Assembly: GCA_024137785.1 (NCBI GenBank)
Contig: JAHRHZ010000002.1
Location: 9,914,694-9,957,357 of the forward strand
DNA: 42,664 nucleotides
Source of the DNA: Ginglymostoma cirratum
Lineage: Eukaryota
Reading direction: 5' to 3'
The first letter of the stretch is position 1. The number at the start of each line of letters is the position of its first letter. A program made the translations under genes and the position numbers. This document shows, in pieces, positions 21,250-41,460 of the stretch. Under the pieces are notes generated by a model that worked only from the letters and a program-made list of their open reading frames with translations, was not told the origin of the DNA and made no database searches.

Positions 21250-21293
21250 TCAGGAAACGGCAGGACTGTCTGAGAATTCCGTTTCATCAGAAG
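21250..21293 (-). CDS. Gene A exon 7 coding part: cytoplasmic (TSDETEFSDSPAVS*)
   Basis: Strong acceptor cttctctttcccttaacag and an SD motif typical of class I exon 7. TGA at 21252-21250, then G|gtatga donor. Confidence 0.85.
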
Positions 21294-24200
21294 CTGTTAA
21301 GGGAAAGAGAAGATTAAAAACCATTCATTATCAGAGCAAGAGAAAGAATGAGACAGACAGTGCGTAACAGACAGAGAGTGCGTAAGACAGGCAGCGAGAA
21401 ACAAGAGAGTGAGACAATGATGGAGAGCAAGAAACGAGACAGACAGCATGCGAGAAACAGAACAAAATGAGACAGCAAAAGAGCATGAGAGAGAAACAAA
21501 AGAGAGAAAGCACAAGAGGAAAAATGAGAGACAGAACAAATGAGTGAGAGAAGTGAGAGCCAGAGACATGAAGAGTGTGAGAGGGAGAAATGAACGAAAG
21601 AGAGAGTGCAAGAGAGGGCTAAATGAGAGACAGAGAGTGCACGAGACCAAGAGAAGAATGAAAGACAGACAGACAGACCAGACAGAGAACAATAACAGAA
21701 ACTGCTTGAGAAACCCATTATGTCTGGCAGCATCTGAGGAGACAGAGAGCAGAGTTAACGCTTTGGATTCAGTGACCCCTCAACAGAACTCCCAGAACGA
21801 AATGTCACTGGACTCAAAACGTTTACTGTTTTCTCTCCACCAATGCTACCAAACCTACTTAGTTGCTTCAGCAATTTCTGTTTTCTGTTTCAGATCTCCA
21901 GCATTTGCAGTTTTTTGTTTGAAACAGAAAGAACAGCTCATCGTACAATAACACAGATGCCGAGATGTCTGAATTATCAGCTTACTGTCTGTGGGACTGT
22001 AGTTGCTCTTCACTTGTCCTGTAAAACAAGGAATGTTCGGTGAGTGTCAAGAGACTGTCAGAAAATCAGAGGAAATGCTGGAGACCCTCACTCGCATCTA
22101 GACTCAGCCCCTCATGCCCATATTGCCCTGATCTGCTGACACCCAACACTAAACTGAGAGCCAAACACAATCTGAAATCTCTGACTTTACACTCACAACC
22201 TGAGACTCTGAACCCTGAGACCTTCCACCTTACCCTAAGAAACAGCTTACCATCACAGATCCTCCTTCACAAACTGAGGCCCTCTCCCCACAGCCTGAGC
22301 CATCGCTAACAAGGAGACTGAGTCATAAACAGAGATTCCTTGCCCACCCTCCGAACCCACGCAAACAGCCGGAGACCATGAGATACTGCAACAGAATTAG
22401 GCCATTCAGCCCATCAGGTATGCTCCAACATTCAATCGTGACTGATATGTTTCTCAACCCCATTCCCCTGCCTTCCCCTATAATCCTTGATCCGCTTACC
22501 AATTAAATACCTAACTATCTCTGTCTTGAGGACACTCAGTGTCTTGGCCTCCACACCCTCCTGCAACAATGGGTTTCCACAGAATCACCGCTGTCTGGCT
22601 GAGAAAATTCCTCCTCAGTTCTAAAGGGTTGTCCCTTCTCACACTATACTAGTCCCTTGGGTCCTAGTCTCTCCTGCTAGTGGAAGCATCTTCTCCACAT
22701 CCACTCTATCCAGGCCTCTCAGTAATCTGTAAATTTCAATGAGATTCGCCATCAACCTTCAAAACTCCACGGAACACAGACGCAGAGTTCTCAACCACTC
22801 CTCATATGACAAACCCTTCAACCCAGGGATCATTCTTGTAAACCTCCTCTGGATTCCCAAGGGCAGCACATCCTTTCTTAGACATGGGACCCAAAACTGC
22901 TCACAATGTTCCTTCACTTTATTCTGGCCATCTCGCTTTTGGCTCTCCAACTCCCTGAGCCCCCCAGAGAGAAGCTGCAATTTTCTCACAAACTCTTACC
23001 TTTCTTCTTGTAAATGATGACAGCCCCAACAGCGACAGCGATAGCGATGATCCCGATGACTCCAAATACAATCCCAAGAGTAACAGGAACCTGAGAGTGA
23101 GACTTTGGGTCTGTCAGAGAGAGAGAGAGAGAAAATCAGAGCGAGTAAGAGAAAAAAAAAGTGGGAGAGAGGCAGACACAAAGAGAGAGGGGAGACAGGG
23201 AGACAGAGACAGAGAGCAAGAAAGTTAAGAAAAACTTGCGTTTTGCAGGATATACTGCATACATTCAGGTCATTTGGTCCAATCAGTATATCGTCACTTT
23301 TATCCACTGAAGCTCCTTCCTGATCTAAATCTGTCATCGACAATTGCTATTCCTTTCTAATTTCCACTTAAATACATTTCAACAAGTCAGGCTCCCTGCA
23401 GCAGCAAGCTTCACATTCTCCCCATTCTTCGGCTGGAGAAGTTTCTTTTGAATTTCTTTTGGAATTTTTGGTGACTGTCTGGTGTTGGTAGTCTTGAGTT
23501 TCTTCCCCAAACACGCTCTGCACCCACTCTATCAAAATGTTTTATTCATTTAAAGATCTCTATAGATTCACCCTTGGGGATTTATTATTCCAGAGAGACC
23601 CAGCCTGCCAATCCTTTCCTTGATAATGTTCACTCACATATTTCTGACATCGTCATTGTAAATCTTCTCTCCACCCTCTCCAGTACCTGAATATCCTTTC
23701 AACCACATGGTGACCTTAACTGTCTACAGTACTCTGCATGGTGGTCTCTTAATTTTTCAGGAGAGATTTAACAGAATAACAAAACCTTCAATTATATTAG
23801 AAAAGGTAAGAAGTTTTATTGCTTGACTTGCAGCACAGAGGCTCAGTGGTTAGCACTGCAGTCACGCAGAGTCAGGGACCCAGGTTCAATTCCACCCTCG
23901 GGTGACTGTTTGTGTGGAGTCTGTACATTCTCCGCGAGTCTGCATGGGTTTCGTCTGGGTCCTCCAGTTTACTCCCAAAGTCCAAAGATGTGCAGGCTAG
24001 GTGGGTTGTCCAGGGATGTGCATGCCAGGTGAAGTAACCACAGGAAAGGCAGGGTTACAAGGACAGGATGAGAGCAGGGGGTGGTGAGTCTGAGTGAATG
24101 CTCTTCGGAGTGTCGCCGTGGACTCAATGGGCCAAATGGCCTGCATGCACACTTCACTGATTCAATGCTACAGTCGTCCTGTTCATTGCCTCCCCCTAAT

Positions 24201-27200
24201 TTGCAACTACCTGCCAATTTATGAACTGTTCTTGTTCACCAGAATCACTGACTGATCAGATATAGCAGACTCGACCAGATTGTCTGCTGCAAAATTCCTC
24301 TCCTTGGGGTTTTGGATTGCCTGTCTCCTATCACAAAGGCTTGTCTAAAGCTCATCTCTGCCTTTTCATAGAATATCTGGAAATTTCTCTCATTCCTGGG
24401 ACTGTCTGGGATTCCTGTCTCTTCTTGAGAATGTCTGGTGCTGCCATCCATAATAAAAATGGGAATTTAATTCTAAAACTCTGTTTAAATAAAACAATAT
24501 TCATGGTCATGGGAGAAGAGACAGTTTGGTGCTGAGTGAAGCTGTAGGGTCCAGAAAAGCTCCAATCCTGGTTGTGACAGCACATTTGTTTCCCCCGTCA
24601 CCACCAGCTGTTTTAGTCTCACCAGGACGGGATTCTTCTGTGCCCACAGTCTGATATTGTCAGCAGGGACTGGAAGGGTGTCCAGAAAGTTTACAACCAG
24701 AATGGACTCTTCCAGGGGAGGCACCACCACTGGGGTATCTATCAGTGGGAGGCAGCTCAACGCTTCTGCACCACATTAAACCGATATTCCTGGTCCTGGG
24801 GTGAGAGTGGAATGGCAGCAGGAATGCCAATGCCGGCCACATGCCTCCTCAGAGCGAGAGACACAGTTTACTTAAGGCACGTACTGTTTTCTCTCATTGC
24901 CACTGAAATAACTGCAGGTATCTGTTCACCGAGTCACCCTTTATTTACCTGTGCACAGTATATGGGCTCTGACTAGCCAACTCAAAGCCTGTCCTTTGAC
25001 TGAGGAGACCTTCTGAATCCCCTGTTACAATTCTGTTTCTTTTTTCTGACCACCCTCATCAGCTGTTTTTGTTTAAATTTATGTAATTACAGTGAAGGGG
25101 TAGCAGGAACTGCAGATGCTGGAGAATCTGAGATAACAAGGTGTAGAGCTGGATGAACACAGCAGGCCATGCAGCATCAGAGGAGCAGGAAGGCTGAAGT
25201 TTTGGGCCTCGACCCTTCTTCAGAAGGTTTCTGAAGATGGTCTAGGCTTGAAACGTCAGCCTTCCTGCTCCTCTGATGCTGCTTGGCCTGCTGTGTTCAT
25301 CCAGCTCTACACCTTGTTATCTCTAATTACAGTAAAGCTGTTCACAACGATTAGGAGTTGAAGTCTCAATTCTTGTTTGTCTTTGATTCCAACCAGACTC
25401 CACAGGATTAAGGAGATTTTGTAACCGGCTCTTAAAGATTGATGGGTATAATAATACATCAAAGGGTGAAGGCAACAGCTGAATCTCCGGTTTACATCTG
25501 TCAGCCAGGGCTCCCTCATTAGCCCAGGTTACCCAAATCAGCAAATTCATATTCTATGAGGAACAAAAACAGAAGTTTCTGGAAAAGCTCAGCAGGTCTG
25601 GTAGCATCTGTGAAGAATAAATCAGAGTTAATGTTTCGGGTCCAGTGACCCCTATTCAGAACGTCCTCACTGGACCCCAAACCTTAACTCTGATTTATTC
25701 TTCACAGATGCTGCCAGACTTGCTGAGCTTTTCCAGCAACTTCAGTTTTTGATCCTGATCAGCATCCGCAATTCATTCGGTTTTTACTTCATATTCTATG
25801 AGATCCACCTGGCCCTGATTCCAATCACTATAGAATTGAAAGGATACGGCATGTTCTGTCACACTAATGTCAGATGATATACCATATACCTTAATCCTGC
25901 AGTGTTCTTGGATCTTTAAGATGCTGGAGTAGCAATGTACTCCAGGACACACTGGAAGATGTCCCACCATAGCACCCCTGGATTCACTGTCTTTATGACT
26001 GTTCTCCAGCAATGGTGTGAGCACTGTGACACACTGATAGTCAATATTTTCCCTCTCTCTATCCTGGGATGTCCTGGTGAAGCAGCTTAGCACTGACCCT
26101 CCCTCCTCTGATCCTGGTCTGAGTCTGGTTCCTGTCTAACAGTAAGAAACAGCCTTACCATATATCACCTTCTCCTCCAGACCACTGTGCTCCACGTAAC
26201 AGGAATACTCGGCCTGATCCTCCGGATCAAATTCTATCCATTTCCGGATCTGATAGGTCCTGTCGTGATTGGGTAAGATCCCGGTGGACAGGGTCTCATC
26301 AATCACCACTCCATCCCGCCACAGAGTCACCTCGATGGCTTGGGGGTAAAACCCAGTGACGAGACAGGACAGCTGGTTAGTATCACCCAGATGGGTAAAG
26401 GACACAGTGGGGGCAACTGAGGGAGAGAGGAACAGGAGTCAGTGCACGAACATCGAGACAAAAAGGAACCTTGAGGTACAGAGTCCCAGGCACCACATCC
26501 TTCACTGACTCTCAAACCACCCATACTCACTGCCTCTCACTTCCCCGCATCCCATCTTATTCTTCCCCAACTCATACTCCGATTCTCACTGAGTCTCATT
26601 CCCCCTCACTCAACAACTCTCACTCAAACACTCCGCCCCCAACCCCCTCAACTCACCGACTCTCAGTTCCCTCTGTCCGTAATCCAGGTATTTCCTCAGC
26701 CACTGGACACATTCGTCCTCCAGGAAATACTTCCATTCCTGCTTCCGCGTATACTGGTCCCACCTGTTTTTGATGCTTTCCGCCCAGGGCACCGGTGTCA
26801 CCCACACCATGTGATCCTTATCGAAGCTGATTAAATCTTGTCCGTCCCATCCAAATTGATTGAACCCCTCCACAGCCCCATCATTCCTCAGGTCACAGCC
26901 AACCACCATCTGGTATGTGTGGATCCCTGTCGATCACAAACACAAGCTTCCACTTAGAAACAGTCATCCCTGTCAATCAGTCTCAGTCTCAGGGTGAGAA
27001 CCCGACCATCAGACTCACCCACAGCCAGCCTCTGGATTCCAGATCCAGATCTGCACCTGGCTCCTCCCCATTCCCACCCAGACTCCCTGAAAGCAGAGGA
27101 AGGTGTCATGCTGAAGTAAAGTGAGCACTCACCCAATGTCTGGTTGGTCCGTGACATAAGTATTGGAACATAGTCCTTAAAATGGTCCTCCATCTCCTGA

Positions 27201-30200
27201 GCGAGGGATAGTTTCCGCTTCCAGAACTGAGCCCCCTCAGTGTCCACCATCCACTGTTCCCGGGGGATCAACACCTTCCGATCGCTGTCGTACATGACAA
27301 ACTGGACCCCGTCCACATAACCAACAATCACAAACTCTGGGAGACCAGGAACTGATGACATACCAGTGTGGAAATACCGGACAGAGTGAGTGGCTGAAAC
27401 ACACAGAAAAGTCAGGACATGAATCCCTAAGCACCAATCACAAAATTCCAACTGAATGCTATCGCTTTACACGCTACGCCTGTGATTACAATGCTCAGGA
27501 TCCCATCCTTCTTCTTCACCACTTTCAGGCTTGGATGCACATACCCACTCATTTTGCCATTCATTGGTAATACCAACCCACCCCTACATCCTGGGTGTTA
27601 CCACTGACCAGAAACTGAACTGGATTAGCCAAATAAAAGCTCTGTGCTCCTGTTGGCTGTTTGCATCAGGAGACCTTTTGGTTATTTAATCTCCCCTCCC
27701 TTCACCCTACCACAGATCTTCTCCTTTGATCTTCACGTCTCCTCCTCCCTCCATCGTCTTAAATGCCCTTACACCTCAGTTTCCCTTCAGCATTGATGAA
27801 ATATTTCTCCCCACGATGCTGCCTGATCTGCTCAACATATCCAGCTATTTTGTTGTGGTCTCTTTTCCCACGTTATCCAATCTTGTCTGCTGCTAGACCC
27901 GAACTGAATTCAGAAAATAAACTCAAAACAAACAATCTCATTCAGCTCCACCATCTTCATAGCAATGTCACACATAACTGAACAGCCAAAAAGTGTTTAT
28001 ATTTTTTATTCACGGGATGTGGGCATCATTGTATACGGTGGCATTTTCTCCCATCCTCAACTGTCTGAGAATGTGGTGGTGAGACACCATTTTGAACCAC
28101 TTCGGTCTGTGTGGTGTAGTTACAAACACAGTGCTGGTCCCAGCTAAAAATGTCAATTAATTGCCTTTAATTCCAAAGCTTTTCTTAATTCTGGGAAACC
28201 ACTCGAATAATGTAAATCTTTTACTGGAATGTTTGCAAACATTTTATTCCAGTTTTGACGGTAATCAGACCCACCCACTGGTTTATGCTCTTTCTACTTC
28301 TCAAGTCACCATGGTGCAAAATTTTCAGCGTAGGTACCTAAAATGAGTCGGTTAGATTCTCGACTGGCTGAAATTTTGAAGTGCTCACTGCCTGTACACT
28401 ATGTAGTGCAAATGTTACCTGCTGCATACGCACCCCAGCCTGAAAGTGGTGAAAGAGGTGGATGGGATCCTGGGCTTTCTAAACACAGGTGTTTCCAAAT
28501 AGGTTTGAACTGAATTTCCATCAGAGTTATAATCTCCGTTTTCTCAGAAGAAAATTTTCAACCCTCGATTAAAGCCTCCGCAGAAGCATATGAAGCCTCA
28601 ACGTCAATAAGACACAAATCCTGTACCAAGCTGTTTGAGATGAACTTCTAATCTATGCCTCCATTAAGATCAATGGATGAATCCTCCCAAATGTGGAACA
28701 TTTCCCCACCTGGGAAGCTACATTTCATCTAAGAATGATATTAGTGCCGCGATTTAACATCACATCCAATCTGTGAGCGCCGCCTTCTGATTCCTGAGGT
28801 TGGAAGACTTCAATGACCATGATATCTGTGCTGAAGCCAAGATCCTTTTATAAAAAGCAATCATCCATCCAACTCTCTCCCATCACTCCGAAACTTGGAC
28901 TATATACAGATTCCATCTCAAGACCCTTGAGAAGCTCTATCAACATAGGATGGATAGAAAGGGGGCAAGAGAGAAGGGGGAGTGGCATTTTGATTAGGAA
29001 TAATAATATGGTCATACTTAGGGAGGATATTCCTGATATTCCAGGCCATTGTGTTAAGGGCTTAGATGGAGAGAAATTTATTGAATGTGTACAAGAAAAT
29101 TTTCTGATTCAGTATGTGGACGTACCTACTACAGAAGGAGCAAAAACTTGACCTACTCTTGGGAAATAAGGCACGGCAGAGGACTAAGATGTCAGTGGGG
29201 GAGCACTTTGGGACCAGTGATCAGAATTCTGTTGGCCTTAAAATAGTGATGGAACAGGACAGAACGAATTTAAAAGTTAAATTTCTAAATTGCAGGAAGG
29301 CTGATTTTGATGGTATTAGGCAAGAGTTTACAAAAGTTGATTTCGGGTGGATGTTTGCAGGTAAAGGGATGGCTGGAAAATGGGAAGCCGTCAAAATGAG
29401 ACAATGAGAGTCCAGAAACAGTTTGTTTTTGTTAGGGCAAAGTGCAAGGTTGGTAGGTGTAGGGAATGCTGGATGAATAGAGAAATTGTGTTCTTGGTCA
29501 GGAAAAAGAAAGGAGCATAAGTCAGGTATAGACAGCAGGGATCGAGTGAATCCCTACAGGAGTATAAAGGCAATAGGAGGATACTTAAGAAATCAGGAGG
29601 GCAAAACGAGAACATGAGACGGCTTTGGCAAATACGGTGAAGCAGAATCCAAAGAGATTCTACAAGTACAGTAAGGACTACAGGGTAACTAGGGAGAAAA
29701 TACGGCCCCTTAAGTATCAGCAAGGCCACCTACATGTGGAGCTGCAGGAGATGGGGGAGCTACTAAACAAGTATTTTGCATCGGTATTTACTGTGGAGAA
29801 GGATATGGAAGATATAGAACATGGAACATAAATAGCGACATCTTGAAAAATGTCCATATTACAGGGGAGGTGGTGCTGTGTGTCATAAAATGCATAAAGT
29901 TGGATTTATCCCCCGGACCTGATCAGGCATAGCCTAGAACTTTGTGAGAAGCGAGGGAAGTGATTACTGGGCCTGTTGCTGAGATATGTGTATCATGGAT
30001 AGCAATAGGTAAAGTGCCAGAAGATTGGAGGTTGGCTAACGTGGTGTCACTACTTAAGAAAGGTGGTAAGGAAAAGCCAGGAAACTATAGACTGGTGAGC
30101 CTGACGTCGGTGGTGGGAAAGTTGTTTGGAAGGAAGCCTGAGGGACAGGATTTATATGTATTTGGAAAGGCAAGGAATTTATAGGGATAGTCAACATGGC

Positions 30201-33200
30201 TTTGTGTGTGGGAAATCATGTCTGACTAACCGGAGTTTTTTGAAGAAGTAATTAAGAGGATTGATGAGGGCAGAGCGGTGGACATGATTTATATGGACTT
30301 CAGTAAGGCGTTTGACAAGGTTTGTCATGGTAAACTGGTTAGCAAGGTTAGATCACATGGAATACATGGACAACTAGCCATTTGGATACAGAACTGGCTT
30401 GAAAGTAGTGGTGGAGGGTTGCTTTTCAGATTAGAGGCCGGTAACCAGTGGTGTGCTACAAGGATCAGTGCTGGGTCCACTGTTTTTTTGTCATTTATAT
30501 AAACGATTCAATGTGAACGTAGGAGGTATGAATAGTAAGCTTGCAGATGACACCAAAATTGGAGATGTAGTGGACAGCGAAGAACGTTACCTCAGACTAC
30601 AATGGGACCTTGATCAGATGGGCCGATGGGCCAAGGAGTGGCAAATGGAGTTTGATCTAGATAAGTGTGAGATGCTACAGTCTGGTCAGACAAATCAGGG
30701 CAGGACTTATACAATTAATGGTAAGGTTGAGGGGAGTGTTGCTGTATGAGATCTTGGAGTGCAAGTTTGTAGTAACTTGAAATTGGAGTCGCAGGCAGAT
30801 AGGATAGTGAAGAAGACATTTTGTACGCTTGCCTTTATTGGTCAGTGCATTGAGTATAGGAGTTGGGAGGTCGTGTTGCATCTGTACAGGATATAGATTA
30901 GGCAACAGTTGGAATACTGTGTGTAATTCTGGTCTCCCCACTTTAGAAAGGATGTTGTGAAACTTGAAAGGGTTCAGAAAAGATTGACAAGGATGTTGCC
31001 AGAGTTGGAGGGTTTGAGCTATATGGGGAGGCCGAGTATACCGGAGCTATTTTCCTTGGACCGTCAGAGGATGAGGTGCGACTTTATAGAGGTTTATAAA
31101 ATCATGAGGTGCATGGATAGGTTAAATAGACAAGGTCTAATCCCTGGGGTGGGCGAGTCCAAAACTAGAGGGCGAAGGTTAAAGATGAGTTCCAACTGCC
31201 AACGCAAATCACCATCACGCAACTCAAGGATGGCACTCAAAATGAGAGGAGGACAAAGTATGCGTTTCAAAGATTCCCTCAGGGCTTCATTCAAGAAATG
31301 CATCATGAATACCAGTCCACGTGAGACCTTCATTCAGAAGAATATGATTTTGGAGGAAATTCCTGTTTGAAGGCTTACAATTCTTTGAGAACACCTGCTG
31401 GCAAGTGGAAGTATGGAAAAGGAACCAGGAAAGAAATACCAACAATTTCAAGGCCAAAGGACCAATTCCACCTCCCAAAAACACCCGCCAAATGGTTTTT
31501 CGGAGGTGGAACTTGAGGATTGGGATCATCAGCCACATAAGGACCCACAGAACCCATGACCGGTGCCATGGAGTGTCCTAGATGGACAATCATACTCATT
31601 ACTGAGGGGACACCAACGACATCCGGATTGCTTTTACAAGCTTCATACCAGAGAACCCAATTTCTGACAGATATAACTTAAATTCCTAAACATATTCCAA
31701 AAACAATGAATGATGAACCAGATTTTCCCCAAGATACAAAAGGAACAAGTTCAAGGGGATAAATACTGTCTTCCAATTCCTATGGCCTTTCTCTCATTCA
31801 TTCAAGGGATGAGGGTTAGGTCAGCCCTTATTGTCCATCTTTAATTGTGCAGAGGGCAGTTGCCATTCCAGTGAGTCTGGAGTCACAGGTAGGTATGACC
31901 AGGAATAGACAGCAGACTTCCTTCCCTAAAAGAACATTACTGAACTAGACAGATATTTATGACATTTTTCTTCTACATTCTTCACTCCTAACTTCCTGTC
32001 CCCACTCTCCAATTAAATATCATTGTCTTTCTATTCCACCACATTCCCCTGATCTCAGTCTGACACTCCTCCATTAATCACCATTACACACTTACTGCAG
32101 GTTACAGTCCAGCACATCTCTGACTCTCAACTGCAGACACTCAACCAGTAATATAGTTCAGTCATCATTCTAGATTGCTCCAAAAAGCAACAAGACAACA
32201 GTTTGTCAGAATTCATTTCCAATAACGCATTCTTTCTCTCTCAGCGAGTTGTGACCCTTACTGACACTGTCCCCGTAGGTCTGTGAGCTGTATCCCATAC
32301 TGACACTGACACTGTCCCCGTCAGTCTGTGAGCTGTATCCCATACTGGCACTGACACTGTCCCCGTCAGTCTGTGAGCTGTGTCCCGTACTGACACTGTC
32401 CCCNNNNNNNNNNCTGTCCCCGTCAGTCTGTGAGCTGTGTCCCGTACTGACACTGTCCCCTTCGGTCTGTGAGCTGTGTCCCGTACTGACGCTGTCCCCG
32501 TCAGTCTGTGAGCTGTGTCCCGTACGGACACTGTCCCCGTCAGTCTGTGAGCTGTGTCCCGTATGGACGCTGTCCCCGTCAGTCTGTGAGCTGTGTCCCG
32601 TACGGACGCTGTCCCCGTCAGTCTGTGAGCTGTGTCCCGTACGGACACTGTCCCCGTCAGTCTGTGAGCTGTGTCCTGTCCTGACAATGACCCTTCAGTT
32701 TATTTTTTAGAACTGTGGCATGAACACTTTCGTAAACAACTTCCTCCTCATGTGTTGTAAAGCTATCAGCCTTTCTCTAGAGAGAGCTTCCACTGCTGTC
32801 TGTAGCTTTCCTGCAAACATCTTACCTCAGAGGTGAATCTCAGAAGGCAGAGTTAGAATCTCTGTCACCAGACAGGTATTATTGTTGACTCTTTCGCATC
32901 TAATGGTTTATGGTCCATCTGTCTGAGCACTTAGGCCCAAGATATTAATTCGATAATGAGGTAACTTAATTGATGAGTTTATCCGCTCATAGATTCAGAG
33001 CTGTTCCCTCCAGCCAATCCCTTCTAATGTCAGCATGTTGGGTGAATATTAATACTGCCCTCAGCGATAATCATTGCAGAATTGAACATCTTCTGTAACA
33101 CAAGGGAGAAGACGAATGAAATGCTCTCCACTTGTCTGGATAAGCATAGTTCCAACACACTGAAGAAGCACAACACCATCTAGCACACAGCAACCCACCA

Positions 33201-35452
33201 AGGGGACTATTCATTGCCTTCATCACTGATGCAGAGTGACAGTAAAGAGTGTATCCCTGAGAAGATGCACTGCAGGATCCCGCCCAGCATCATTTGACAG
33301 TACATTCCCAACTCATAAAACCTCCTTCCTCCAAGGCCAAAGGGAGCAGACAGATGGGAACACCACCATCTACAAGTTCACCTCCATGTCTCATCCTGAC
33401 TTGGAACTAGCTCACCGTTCCCTCACTGTCACTGAAATACAATTTGAGAGTTTGCTCCCTAACAGCACTCTGGCTCTTTCTGCAAATGGTGGAGGCAATG
33501 ATTCAACATTCTTGCTCACCGCCACCTCTGAGAGCAAATAGCAACGAACAATAAATTCCAGCTTTACCTGTAACACGCAGATGTCATTGACTAATATTAA
33601 AAAAAGTCCAAGCGGATTACAATGGAAAAAGAGCAAAACATTCAGCTTCTTGAAACTGTCAGACTGGAACATGAGGAGGCCATTCAGCCCTTCAAGATTG
33701 CTATGCAGGAATAGGAAGAGGTCATTTGGCCCCTTCAGTTTTTGACACAGTGACAGGAACAAGTTCCTCAGATCCGTGATGCTGGATATTCCCATGTCAC
33801 TTTTAGTTTCCACCTGTGTTCCATTTCCAATGTTGGGGTTTTGTGGACCTCGGGAGCGGATGGTTGGTTTGTGGCATGTGCAGCTGCAGGGAAGGAACGG
33901 TTACTCCATTTGTGTGTATGCACTGCGGTTGCAATGGTATAGAGTCATAGAGTCATACAGCAAGGATACAGACCCTCCGGACTGTTTAGTTAATCAATGA
34001 GTATACCACAGTTAGGCTGAATGGAGAGAATAAAATATCAGTTACTGAAATAAAATGAAGATTTGAGAAGCCATTTTGTTAACTTATTATCCAACGCTGG
34101 GGAAAGGAGAGAATTTCACAATTCACTTCGGCCTCATCCGTTGAAAAATCAGACTTTGTTCAGTTCTCGAGTTAATACATTTTTCACTTTTTGCTTTACT
34201 TGAAAATGTATTTTCTAACTTGTAACTTTTTCACTTTTCTATTCTTTAATGTTCAATAAATCATTTGAAACAAAAGTTTTTGCTGTCGCATTATAGTTAA
34301 TTCTCATACGAACCGGAATAATTTTAAATCTTGGATTCACTGAAGTTAAAAACATGAAATCAAATAAATTGTACCAAATAAACCACTCTGACAGTCATAT
34401 ATTCCAGGGTTAAAATCGCAGTCAGCACCCTTCTTCAGAAATGGGGGAGCGGGAAGGAAGCTCTGAAATAGATAGAGAGGGGACAGGTGGGACTGGGAAA
34501 GGTAGCTGGGACGGTGATAGGGGAGTGCAGGTAGGCAGTAGTGGGGATTGGTCAGTGAGGGGAGAGTAGCAGATAGGTGGTAGAGAAGATGGACAGGTTG
34601 TGTCAGGTCAAGTAGTTGGGATATGAGGGAGGGTTGGTCATGGGATGAGGGCAGAGGTGGGGAGATTTTGAAGCTAGTAAAGTCCACATTGAGACCATTG
34701 GATTGTAGGGTTCCCAGGTGGAGTATGAGGTGCTGATCCTCCAGTTTCTGGGTGGCATCGTTGTGGCACTGGAGCAGGCCCCAGGATGGTCTTGTCGTCC
34801 AGGGAGTGGGATGGGGAGTTGAAGTTGTTCGCGACCGGAAGGTTGTTGTTTGTCACGAACCGAGCGTAGGTGCTCCACAAAGTGGCCTCCGAGCCTCCGT
34901 GTGGTCTCCTCGATGTAGAGGAGACCACACCGGGAACTTCGGATACAGTATACCACATCAGCGGATGTGCAGGTGAATATCTGTTTGATGTGGAAGGTCT
35001 TCTTAGGGCCTGGGATGGGGGTGAGGAGGGAGGTGTAGGGGCAGGTGTAGCACTTCCTGTGGTTGCAGGGAAAGATGTCGGGGCTGTTGGAGAGTGTGGA
35101 GTGGACGAAGGAGTTGCAGAGAGAGTGGTCCCTCCGGAAGGCAGATAAGGGTGGGGAGGGAAATATATCCTTGGTAGTGGGGTCAGATTGCAGGTGGCTG
35201 AAGTGGCAGAGGATGATGCGTTGAATCCGGAGGTTGATGGGGTGATAGGTGAGGACAAGGGGAATTCTGTCTTTGTTTAGATTGCGGGGAGGGGGTTTGA
35301 GGGCTGAGGTGCGGGAAACGCTAGAGGGGCAGTCGAGGACGTTTNNNNNNNNNNCCCAGTAGCCAGCCTGGCACTGTTCGCTCCCCCCCAACCCATTACC
35401 CCCCTGCAGAGAGCTCTCCACACAGAAGCCCCAGCACTAACAGTCCGATCAT
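21250..35452 (-). CDS. MHC class I heavy chain gene A (nonclassical-like), 7 coding exons, 341 aa if spliced canonically; leader donor is non-canonical
   Basis: Exons of 49+261+270+258+111+33+44 nt = 1026 nt join in phase 1 with no internal stop. The order leader/alpha1/alpha2/alpha3/TM/cyt/cyt is the canonical class I structure. Linkage of the leader crosses two N gaps. Confidence 0.9.
21332..21690. repeat. Degenerate AG-rich low-complexity tract in intron 6
   Basis: Purine-rich plus strand, which is pyrimidine-rich on the coding strand upstream of the exon 7 acceptor. Confidence 0.85.
21686..21921. mobile_element. Old palindromic Penelope-derived element, family B
   Basis: Degenerate homologue of 25561-25787, with inverted arms around GTCACTGGAC. 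Confidence 0.7.
21986..22018 (-). CDS. Gene A exon 6: cytoplasmic (GQVKSNYSPTD)
   Basis: ttgttttacag acceptor, gtaagc donor, 33 nt, phase 1-1. Contains the Tyr typical of the first class I cytoplasmic exon. Confidence 0.88.
22377..22910 (-). mobile_element. CR1-type LINE 3' fragment
   Basis: EHCEQFWVPCLRKDV..IQRRFTRMIPGLKGLSYEE motif. Confidence 0.85.
23000..23110 (-). CDS. Gene A exon 5: connecting peptide and TM (DPKSHSQVPVTLGIVFGVIGIIAIAVAVGAVIIYKKK)
   Basis: (TC)n polypyrimidine tract then gacag acceptor, donor gtaaga, 111 nt, phase 1-1. Hydrophobic helix followed by a KKK stop-transfer. Confidence 0.93.
23829..24170 (+). mobile_element. HE1-type V-SINE
   Basis: A box GGCTCAGTGG, B box GGTTCAATTCC, and V domain. 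Confidence 0.85.
25098..25323. mobile_element. Palindromic Penelope-derived element, family A, with hammerhead motifs on both strands
   Basis: Arms of about 95 bp, inverted, centred near 25226. Plus strand CTGAAGA (25231-25237)...GAAACGTC (25250-25257). Direct repeat TAATTACAGT(G/A)AAG at 25084-25097 and 25324-25337. Confidence 0.9.
25561..25787. mobile_element. Palindromic Penelope-derived element, family B, with 15-bp TSD
   Basis: TTCATATTCTATGAG at 25546-25560 and 25788-25802. Arms of about 90 bp, inverted. Minus strand CTGAATAG-GGGTC ACTG GACCC-GAAAC. Confidence 0.9.
26159..26416 (-). CDS. Gene A exon 4: alpha3 C1-set Ig domain (LSCLVTGFYP...LPNHDRTYQ...YSCYVEHSGL)
   Basis: Acceptor ctctctccctcag, donor gtaagg, 258 nt. 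Has the CxxxGFYP and YxCxVxH motifs. Confidence 0.97.
26657..26926 (-). CDS. Gene A exon 3: alpha2 domain (GIHTYQMVVGCDL...WDGQDLISFD...NRWD...LEDECVQWLRKYL)
   Basis: Acceptor acag, donor gtgagt, 270 nt. Has the C101-C164 pair, D119-G120, W147, W167 and Y171. Confidence 0.97.
27133..27393 (-). CDS. Gene A exon 2: alpha1 domain (ATHSVRYFHTG...GYVDGVQF...REQWM...FWKRK...SRTNQTL)
   Basis: Acceptor tttcag, donor gtgagt, 261 nt. Contains class I motifs HSxRYF and GYVD and the N86 sequon NQT. Confidence 0.97.
28945..31185 (+). mobile_element. CR1/HER1-type LINE ORF2 (endonuclease to RT), frameshifted
   Basis: VPEDWRLANVV..KKGGKEKPGNYR.VSLTSVVGK, YMDFSKAFDKV, QGSVLGP and ADDTK motifs. Confidence 0.93.
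31190..31620 (+). mobile_element. RTE/BovB-type LINE 3' fragment
   Basis: RGGQSMRFKDSLRASFKKC and RIGIISHIRTH zinc-finger remnant. Confidence 0.75.
32255..32682. repeat. 39-bp minisatellite (GACACTGTCCCCGTCAGTCTGTGAGCTGTGTCCCGTAC[T/G]) in intron 1 of gene A, spanning an N gap
   Basis: About 10-11 near-identical visible copies. Two copies carry a 6-bp (CTGACA-type) insertion. Confidence 0.95.
34420..35344 (-). mobile_element. Penelope-like element 3' part (GIY-YIG), the probable autonomous relative of family A inserts
   Basis: RIPLVLTYHP, PCNHRKCYTC and FTCTSADVVYCIR.SRCGLLYIEET.RRLG.HFVEH motifs. Ends in TTTCTGAAGAAGGGT. Confidence 0.92.
35404..35452 (-). CDS. Gene A exon 1: signal peptide MIGLLVLGLLCGELSA
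   Basis: ATG at 35452 starts a hydrophobic 16-codon leader nearly identical to 1855-1807. It is followed by GGGGGTAATGG where the paralogue has GTAAGTAATGG. Confidence 0.85.
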
Positions 35453-39649: not shown

Positions 39650-41460
39650 CACTCCAGCCCAGTGTTTATAGAATGCAATTTCATAACTAATTTTATGACA
39701 ACACCCCCAGCCCAGTGTTCAGATAACACACGTACAATATTGTTAGCCAATATGTTTATATAACACACACAGCCCCCAGTAATTTTATAAAAAACAACCC
39801 AGCCCAGTGTTTATATCACATTCCCCCCCCCCCCAGTAATTTGATTACAACCCCCGGCCAGCTCAATGTTTATATAACACCCCAGGAACTTTATAACAAA
39901 CCAATAGACCGGTGTGTTTATATAGCACCGTTCCCACCAATATTAGAAACCCCCTGCAGCTCAGTGTTTATATAACACGCAGTCCCCAGTAATTTTATAA
40001 CAACCCCCCCAAGACCAGTGTTTATATATCACCTCCCTTGGTAACTTTATTGCAACCCGCCCCAACCCAGTGTTTATGGAAAACTCACTCCCCAGTAATT
40101 TTATGAAACTACCCCAGCCCAGTGTTTCAGTAAATTTTATAACAATCCCCCAGCCAGGTGTTTAAATAAAACTCACCCCGCACCCCCAGTAAATTTATAA
40201 CAACACCCCCAACGTTTATATAACACCCCACCAGTAGTTTGATATGAATATCACTAGCCGAGTGTTTGTATAACACAGCCCCCAGTAATTTTATAACTAC
40301 ATGCAGCCCAGTGTTTATATAACACACACCCTCCGAGTAATTTTATAACATATCCCAGCCCAGTAATTTTATAACAAGCCCCCACCCCTGTGTTTGTATA
40401 ACACACACCTTCTGAATAATTTTATAACAAACCCCGCAGCCCAGTGTTTATATCACACACATCCCCAGTAATTTTATAAGAGTAACCCCCCCCCAGGTCC
40501 AGTGTTTATATAACCCCCCTGAGTAATATTATTACAATCCCCCCCAGCCCAGAGTCTATATAACATCCCACAGTACATTTGTAATAACCTCCCCCCACAG
40601 CCCAATGTTAATTTAAAACACATTCCCCAGTAATTTTATAAAAATAACACCCCGCAAGGTCCAGTGTTTATATAACCCCCTGAGAAATATTATTACAACC
40701 CCCCCCCAGCCCAGAGTCTATATAACACCCCACAATACATTTGTAATAACCTCCCCCACCAGCCCAATGTTAATTTAAAACACATTCCCCAGTAATTTTA
40801 TAACAATCCTCCAGCCTTGTGTTTACATAGCACCCCACCCATTAATATTATAAATCTCCTGAAGCTCAGGGTTTTGATTACACTCCCCCCCAACAGTAAT
40901 TTTATAAGAACCCCCTCCCCAACCAAACCAGCTTTTATGTTTTTTTTCCTTTATTCATTCATGGGATGAGGGTGTCGCTGGCTGGGCAGTATTTATAGCC
41001 CACCCCCAAGTTTAGAGTCAATCTGTGGCAGGATTTGAACCAGGGTCCCCAGAATTTTATCTGGGTTTCTGAATTATCAATCTAGCAAAAATACCACTAG
41101 GACATAGCCTCCTCCTTATCGTTACCCCCCAGTGATTTTACAACGTCCCCCTGCCCAGTGTTTATATAACACACACCCCAATATTTTTATAACAAACCCC
41201 CCCAGCCCACTGTTTATATAACACACACCCCAATATTTTTATAACAAACCCCCCCAGCCCAGTGTTTATATAACACACTCACCAATATTTTTATATCAAC
41301 TCCCCCGGCCCAGTGTTTCTCTAACACACCCCCCAATATTTTTATATCAACCCCCCCAGCCCAGTGTTTATGTAACACACCCTCAGTAATGTTCTAACAA
41401 CACCCCCTTTGCACTGTATTTATGTTGCCCACCTACCCAGTAATTTTATAACAACTTCCC
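39650..41460. repeat. Degenerate satellite, unit about 54 bp (CCCAGCCCAGTGTTTATATAACAC + CCCCAGTAATTTTATAACAA), interrupted by a SINE at about 40937-41115
   Basis: Two related half-units alternate over about 1.8 kb, with a strong C-versus-G strand skew. Confidence 0.9.

Follow-up and report, generated by a model that had tools for sequence, protein, structure and literature searches.

What does a class I molecule hold once half of the residues that anchor the two ends of a peptide have been replaced? The question is raised by a gene in a 42,664-nucleotide stretch of nurse shark (Ginglymostoma cirratum) DNA (contig JAHRHZ010000002.1, positions 9,914,694 to 9,957,357; hereafter the window), which a sequence-only reading had taken for an intact but nonclassical class I gene of the major histocompatibility complex (MHC). 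We found that the gene almost certainly belongs to UBA, an elasmobranch nonclassical class I lineage, and that this lineage, as well as the molecule to within 12 residues, was already known. A comparison of aligned sequences indicates that UBA fixes the A/B end of the groove (L45, R62, K63, L66, an acidic residue at 163, and W167) and relaxes the F end, and that classical class I does the reverse. Our preferred explanation, to which we give somewhat less than an even chance, is that UBA presents hydrophobic peptides of a limited range, held otherwise than by the classical free-amine site.

The full-length protein was identical to nurse shark AAC60347 (UniProt O19479) at 330 of 342 columns (96.5%), and an α1 protein search returned the same entry at 97%. 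The leader, transmembrane segment, and tail matched exactly, nothing differed after α3, and the 12 differences comprised nine in α1-α2 (positions 76, 81, 137, 148-152 with a one-residue deletion, and 162) and three in α3. No entry identical to the window's exact protein appeared in the protein database searches. The window gene and AAC60347, an accession labeled UBA in the supplement of PMC10751288, are alleles or the products of a very recent duplication. In that paper, UBA is a multicopy class Ib cluster of the elasmobranch MHC with c4 and rxrb on its flanks, and the functions of the shark class Ib lineages are called unknown; a review treats UBA as an expanded family with an origin from UAA (PMC12562908).

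In a careful tree built from 33 selected rows, the window gene paired with AAC60347 (support 100/99), a zebra shark sequence joined next (98/97), and a 13-row UBA clade was recovered (100/99). Nurse shark UAA fell in a separate orectolobiform clade (100/99), and the UAA-like nonclassical nurse shark sequence AAL59854 grouped with it, apart from the window gene. A quick tree of 72 rows (the window plus 71 of 89 proteins, with 18 fused, partial, or cluster-mate rows omitted) agreed, giving a 42-row UBA clade with a Shimodaira-Hasegawa-like approximate likelihood ratio test (SH-aLRT) value of 95, and UBA was nested among classical-type sequences in both trees. The phylogeny proposed in the sequence-only reading thus places the gene with the UBA reference and away from UAA, and the label nonclassical is supported. 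A classical UAA allele was rejected, with only four of eight anchors kept and a clade separate from UAA of the same order. UCA, UDA, UEA, UFA, and UGA are, like UBA, nonclassical and MHC linked (PMC10751288). When compared by eye with the references in that supplement, UCA, UDA, UFA, and UGA were far more distant than UBA, and nurse shark UDA keeps Y59, E63, T143, and K146, unlike the window gene; membership in UDA thus found no support in this by-eye comparison, made outside the tree. The supplement showed no reference labeled UEA.

Residue numbers follow the alignment between AAC60347 and HLA-A2 that was published in the PMC10751288 supplement. The residues listed in the sequence-only reading were all present: the eight peptide-terminus anchors read Y7, F59, R84, I143, R146, W147, F159, and Y171, leaving four of eight intact, together with the K61-R62-K63 run, L123, W156, and the structural and β2-microglobulin-contact residues H3, F8, T10, Y27, D29, the N86 sequon, H93, Q96, C101/C164, Q115, D119, G120, and D122. 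The anchor changes are lineage traits, because every substitution listed there is also carried by the reference cDNA AAC60347 and the changes recur across the UBA rows. Nor is the residue pattern a product of chance, because α1 and α2 matched the shark UAA structure 6LUP at E=1.3e-23 and E=8.8e-27, respectively. Classical binding at peptide position 1 (P1) uses Y7, Y59, D/E/Q63, Y159, and Y171, according to PMC8236899, and three residues of this list are changed together in the window gene.

Other claims of that reading needed trimming. L123 and W156 had been singled out as special, but they are ordinary, occurring in 3 and 9 of 30 classical Triakis (houndshark) alleles. A charge reversal at the A pocket had been proposed; the basic shift is real, although classical shark molecules carry E, Q, or N at 63, making the change one from acidic or neutral to lysine, and a co-conserved acidic residue at 163, absent from that reading, may pair with K63. 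The loss of two hydroxyls is true of the window gene but is a sub-branch trait only, since F159 occurred in 8 of 42 UBA rows and position 59 was mostly A or S. The suggestion of acylated peptides found no support for long-acyl, myristoyl-type binding, and a myristoyl-type pocket was rejected: H9, M70, and M97 of the window protein are not small, with V99 present.

An AlphaFold model of AAC60347, made for that protein and not for the window protein from a 48-row alignment, had a class I fold (mean predicted local distance difference test score, 78), and its best match in a fold search was 6LUP (E=5.5e-32). Between them, the sequence and this model contained the fold, the disulfides, and the β2-microglobulin-contact residues of class I molecules. 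The conserved contact residues support the earlier proposal of a β2-microglobulin-associated molecule, and the product likely pairs with that subunit. The window form also has a peculiarity of its own, overlooked in the sequence-only reading: its α2 helix from 147 to 159 has 13 residues, compared with 14 in 38 of 42 UBA rows and in all 25 other chondrichthyan rows, and the deletion with clustered changes at residues 148-152 (window, approximately 26745-26760) was unique among 67 chondrichthyan rows, one row lacking the region. Reads confirmed the deletion.

The lineage pattern was drawn from 42 UBA rows representing 14 shark and ray species by source names, including sawfish and sawshark. At the A/B end, the rows had K63 (39), R62 (37), L45 (40), L66 (37), acidic 163 (39), and W167 (42), and K63 occurred together with E/D163 in 37. 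Position 59 was never tyrosine, being A in 22, S in 10, and F in 7. The C-terminal anchors had largely gone, with T143 in 2 rows (I143 in 35) and K146 in 4, and Y99 was found once; W147, Y159 (29), Y171 (34), and R84 were kept by the majority, and W156 occurred in 32. Among the 25 other chondrichthyan rows, K63 was found in 1, T143 in 25, and K146 in 24. All eight anchors were present in 30 of 30 classical Triakis alleles, and likewise in nurse shark UAA; in the Triakis alleles, position 63 was E (12), N (12), or Q (6), positions 45, 66, and 67 were also variable, and K63, I143, and F159 were never found. The line between UBA and classical molecules is blurred by F59 in two Chiloscyllium sequences labeled class IA and by the three UBA rows without K63.

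Pocket chemistry differed as well. The A-pocket set had a net charge of +1 in 35 of 41 UBA rows, compared with an average of -0.12 over 25 other rows, and the mean hydropathy of the B pocket was 1.26 in 36 UBA rows (1.58 in the window protein) versus -0.15 in 24 others; for the groove, the values were 0.20 versus -0.43 (24 other rows). Entropy among the UBA rows was higher at groove positions than elsewhere (1.63 versus 0.99), as expected of an occupied groove.

Two departures from the pattern were seen. In an orectolobiform sub-branch (P0044, P0049, and P0167), which has S63, T143, and W146, K63 has been lost again and the F end differs. Four genes of the sevengill shark Heptranchias perlo (P0057, P0159, P0161, and P0163) are mosaics; the α1 domain of P0057 grouped with UBA (SH-aLRT 95; K63, L45, and L66), and its α3 domain was 100% identical to that of the classical-type P0058 from the same species, which suggests exon exchange or homogenization.

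How might such a groove hold a hydrophobic peptide? On the α1 helix, K63 and R62 would form a pair with E163 of the α2 helix, beside W167, and K63 would fill or close the site that normally takes the peptide amino group, so that Y59 would no longer be needed. Either a side chain or a short blocking group at the N terminus would hold the ligand in the fixed hydrophobic B pocket (L45, L66, A67, and a small residue 99); most likely, the ligands would be hydrophobic peptides whose N terminus is blocked or whose first residue sits one position later. Each paralog would owe its own specificity to the variable residues in the center and at the F end, and loss of T143 and K146 would loosen C-terminal capture. 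By analogy, the readers of UBA are likely innate-like T cells or receptors of the natural killer (NK) type. There are precedents for the proposed contacts: an R62-E163 bridge crosses the peptide N terminus in HLA-B27 (PMC3293911), a cross-groove R62-E163 bridge occurs in H-2Dd (PMC1174912), and in Mamu-B*098 the A pocket is sealed by a bulky Q63 together with an R66-E163 bridge (PMC4735555). A literature search found, among the papers it covered, none on the groove chemistry or ligands of UBA, a weak negative given that the field publishes mostly in subscription journals and that papers on the lineage may describe the groove.

Several points weigh against presentation of such peptides by UBA. 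As cluster representatives that are related to one another, two of them being identical over α1-α3, the 42 rows do not count as independent events, and the groove was also the more variable part in the 25 non-UBA rows (1.69 versus 0.91). Classical molecules with ordinary peptides have R62-E163 bridges as well, and UBA keeps Y7 (31 of 36 rows covered) and Y171, which is compatible with ordinary amine binding. The A-pocket set remains at +1 even when E163 is counted, which an anionic ligand would fit equally, and residues 9, 70, and 97 lack the small size that myristoyl binding needs. Finally, the structural model is that of AAC60347 and not of the window protein, and the groove geometry of K63 and E163 is deduced from sequence.

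One alternative, unlikely in our judgment, takes up the anionic ligand: UBA would bind an anionic or aldehyde-bearing non-peptide, such as a metabolite, a phospho-group, or a lipid head group, with K63 as an ionic or covalent catch, resembling MR1 by convergence. The prevalence of K63 and of the positive A pocket, the alteration of the sites for both peptide termini, and the more hydrophobic groove are all in line with this, and MR1 structures filled most of the fold-search ranks after 6LUP. We rejected this ranking as evidence on the ligand, because it does not discriminate: the best MR1 match (E=2.5e-27) was followed within about two orders of magnitude by classical molecules of carp (7.7e-26) and chicken (1.9e-25), with similar TM-scores. 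HLA position 45, the equivalent of K43 in MR1, is leucine in 40 of the 42 rows. Moreover, the central groove differs widely between paralogs, unlike that of a single-ligand molecule, and many charged groove residues are kept, unlike in CD1.

Alternatively, the groove might be empty or its content irrelevant, with UBA serving as a surface ligand or chaperone and R62, K63, L66, E163, and W167 forming a receptor-contact patch, which we also regard as improbable. The conserved residues do gather at one helix end, from which 62, 66, and 163 can point toward receptors; contacts of R62 with T-cell receptors are described in PMC3293911, and mouse M10.5 provides a precedent with its open, empty groove (PMC1174912). 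Free decay of the C-terminal anchors and the production of exon-skipped forms without α2 or α3 point the same way. However, the buried B-pocket positions 45, 67, and 99 are fixed in the lineage too, W147, Y159, Y171, and R84 are retained by most rows, and groove positions diversify among paralogs.

Another account, to us a poor prospect, is that UBA resembles other class Ib molecules that bind peptides: its ligands would be ordinary ones with free ends and a narrow motif (e.g., acidic P1/P2), and the substitutions would do no more than lower affinity. Y7, R84, W147, and Y171 are kept, K146R is conservative, Q/N63 is tolerated in 18 of 30 classical shark alleles, F59 has its class IA-labeled counterparts, and UBA is nested among classical-type sequences. 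Such a mild account sits badly with the complete absence of K63, I143, and F159 from those 30 alleles and with the joint change of three P1 hydrogen-bonding residues given in PMC8236899.

A bolder proposal, which we consider very unlikely, sees in UBA an elasmobranch-wide, independently evolved set of MR1-like sensors, in which a nearly invariant lysine of the groove, K63, set in a hydrophobic A/B pocket depleted of tyrosine, would capture a chemically defined ligand, either a non-peptide or an N-modified one, perhaps through a covalent bond; the rest of the groove would vary among paralogs. The α1 module with K63 is kept even in the sevengill shark mosaics that otherwise match the classical locus.

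There is next to no chance that the gene is a pseudogene in decay whose leader can no longer be spliced, as its exon 1 donor of GG and the frame shift at the next GT might imply, and this explanation was rejected as contradicted by RNA for the individuals sequenced, the seven-exon frame being open, the zebra shark orthologue (79, 82, and 90% identical per domain) sharing the residue pattern, and the donor adjoining an assembly gap.

The RNA evidence came from four runs mapped on window positions 26100-27450, with reads less than 90% alike excluded; three runs, from three studies, were informative, the fourth (X22) gave no reads, and one run may be the source of the window. The polyA run X21 yielded 968 mapped reads out of 12.9 million; 898 of these matched at least 99%, and depth was confined to exons. 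Joints were found between α1 and α2 (55 reads), between α2 and α3 (121 reads), and from α3 into the transmembrane exon (90 reads), and 124 reads joined α1 in frame to a leader whose letters were those of the window gene and not of its paralog. Contigs of runs X1 and X5, whose RNA nature is a guess, had the same junctions, including the in-frame leader. In agreement with the earlier description of the gene as intact, it thus has an open frame over seven exons and an expressed leader junction; it lies outside the classical UAA clade and is transcribed, neither of which fits the two outcomes that the sequence-only reading had named against itself. The GG donor (window 35400-35403, minus strand) lies about 50 bases from a gap of 10 N (35345-35354). 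It is most likely an assembly error, because RNA from other runs splices the leader normally, although the assembled animal may carry a null allele.

In none of the three informative runs did a variant or indel reach 5% in α1 or α2. The form in the window, α2 deletion of one residue included, is therefore real and common; AAC60347, which differs at nine positions in these groove domains, is then a different allele or a closely related duplicate. About 10% of the α3 reads carried 19 apparently linked differences and had other neighboring exons; they represent another expressed paralog. Unphased, the α3 read variants affected 16 codons, 9 synonymously versus 7 non-synonymously. In X21 only, 22 reads skipped α2, joining α1 to α3, and 16 joined α2 directly to the transmembrane exon, the frame being kept in both cases. 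These forms recall HLA-G, for which exon-skipped isoforms are known.

The whole gene lies inside the window on the minus strand, its seven exons encoding a heavy chain of 341 residues, with AG/GT at every exon boundary save the leader donor. Exon 1 (35404..35452) encodes the leader peptide, 16 residues plus one base; the gene's own leader was missed by tblastn and found by blastn with the paralog leader, is identical to that of AAC60347, and is supported by RNA reads. The interval 26657-27393 given in the sequence-only reading runs exactly from the 3′ end of the α2 exon to the 5′ end of the α1 exon. Exon 2 (27133..27393), bounded by AG/GT, encodes α1, 98% identical to AAC60347 and 48% to nurse shark UAA, with Y7, H9, L45, F59, R62, K63, L66, R84, and the N86 sequon. 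Exon 3 (26657..26926) encodes α2 with the one-residue deletion near 150 and with V99, C101, I143, R146, W147, W156, F159, E163, C164, W167, and Y171; it was established from the sequence and read joints, the reads having no indel relative to the window. Exon 4 (26159..26416) encodes the α3 Ig C1 domain, with both cysteines and 97% identity to AAC60347, and exon 5 (23000..23110), found by tblastn and supported by RNA reads, encodes the connecting peptide and transmembrane segment. Two cytoplasmic-tail exons, located by tblastn and sequence outside the read-tested stretch, complete the gene: exon 6 (21986..22018), which has a tyrosine, and exon 7 (21250..21293), which ends with the stop codon.

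A second tandem class I paralog is represented by its leader exon (1807..1855, minus strand), which has a canonical GT donor; the remainder lies outside the window. Its leader had 3 base differences from the first, and 200 bases including the upstream flank were 75% identical. The paralog leader and promoter together span window positions 1807-2100, and an inverted CCAAT box lies upstream in both promoters. This second leader exon and the roughly 10% of paralog-type α3 reads indicate a multicopy tandem cluster. No other gene was recognized among window open reading frames of at least 130 amino acids. The introns and flanks contain repeats (34600-35330, 29200-31200, 32246-32693, and 39750-41460), including a decayed element that by eye resembles a GIY-YIG/Penelope-type retroelement, decayed remnants of the reverse transcriptase of a long interspersed nuclear element, a 39-base tandem repeat containing a gap, and, upstream of the gene, a 50-52-base minisatellite.

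The gene itself is one more allele or recent duplicate in a lineage that received its name decades ago. Across 14 species, however, UBA fixes around K63 and E163 those A/B positions that are varied in classical alleles and relaxes the C-terminal anchors, and for a class Ib lineage whose functions are described as unknown in PMC10751288, this pattern is a specific, testable lead on what an old, expanded family presents rather than a discovery.

Among known molecules, AAC60347 is the closest, sharing with the window protein the residues at all eight anchor positions, K63, L123, W156, the leader, the transmembrane segment, the tail, and the clade, and the tandem paralog of the window fits the multicopy UBA cluster of PMC10751288. 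Classical UAA (Gici-UAA*01, PDB 6LUP, and the Triakis alleles) has the same fold and exon plan and is the best structural match to the UBA model, but it is only 48, 56, and 57% identical to the window protein per domain, carries the eight anchors with E/Q/N63, and is polymorphic at 45, 63, 66, and 67, the positions that UBA fixes. According to PMC4735555 and PMC9243169, binding of myristoyl-lipopeptides needs small residues at 9, 70, 97, and 99. Mamu-B*098 resembles UBA in its hydrophobic B pocket, small residue 99, and bulky residue 63 with an E163 able to close the A pocket, and K63, R62, and E163, from which a comparable seal might form, are present in the window sequence; it differs in having small residues at 9, 70, and 97 (S, A, and T versus H, M, and M in the window protein, with S/G at 9 in none of the UBA rows) and in bridging E163 from R66, where UBA has L66. 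H2-M3, which presents N-formyl peptides, and MR1, which presents vitamin B metabolites, are, like UBA, nonclassical class I molecules with a modified A pocket. H2-M3 has H9, as does the window protein, together with Q34, L167, and F171, in place of which the window protein has V34, W167, and Y171. In MR1, the Schiff-base lysine K43 sits on the floor of the B pocket and maps to HLA position 45; UBA likewise has a conserved groove lysine, but at 63, and the window protein has leucine at 45.

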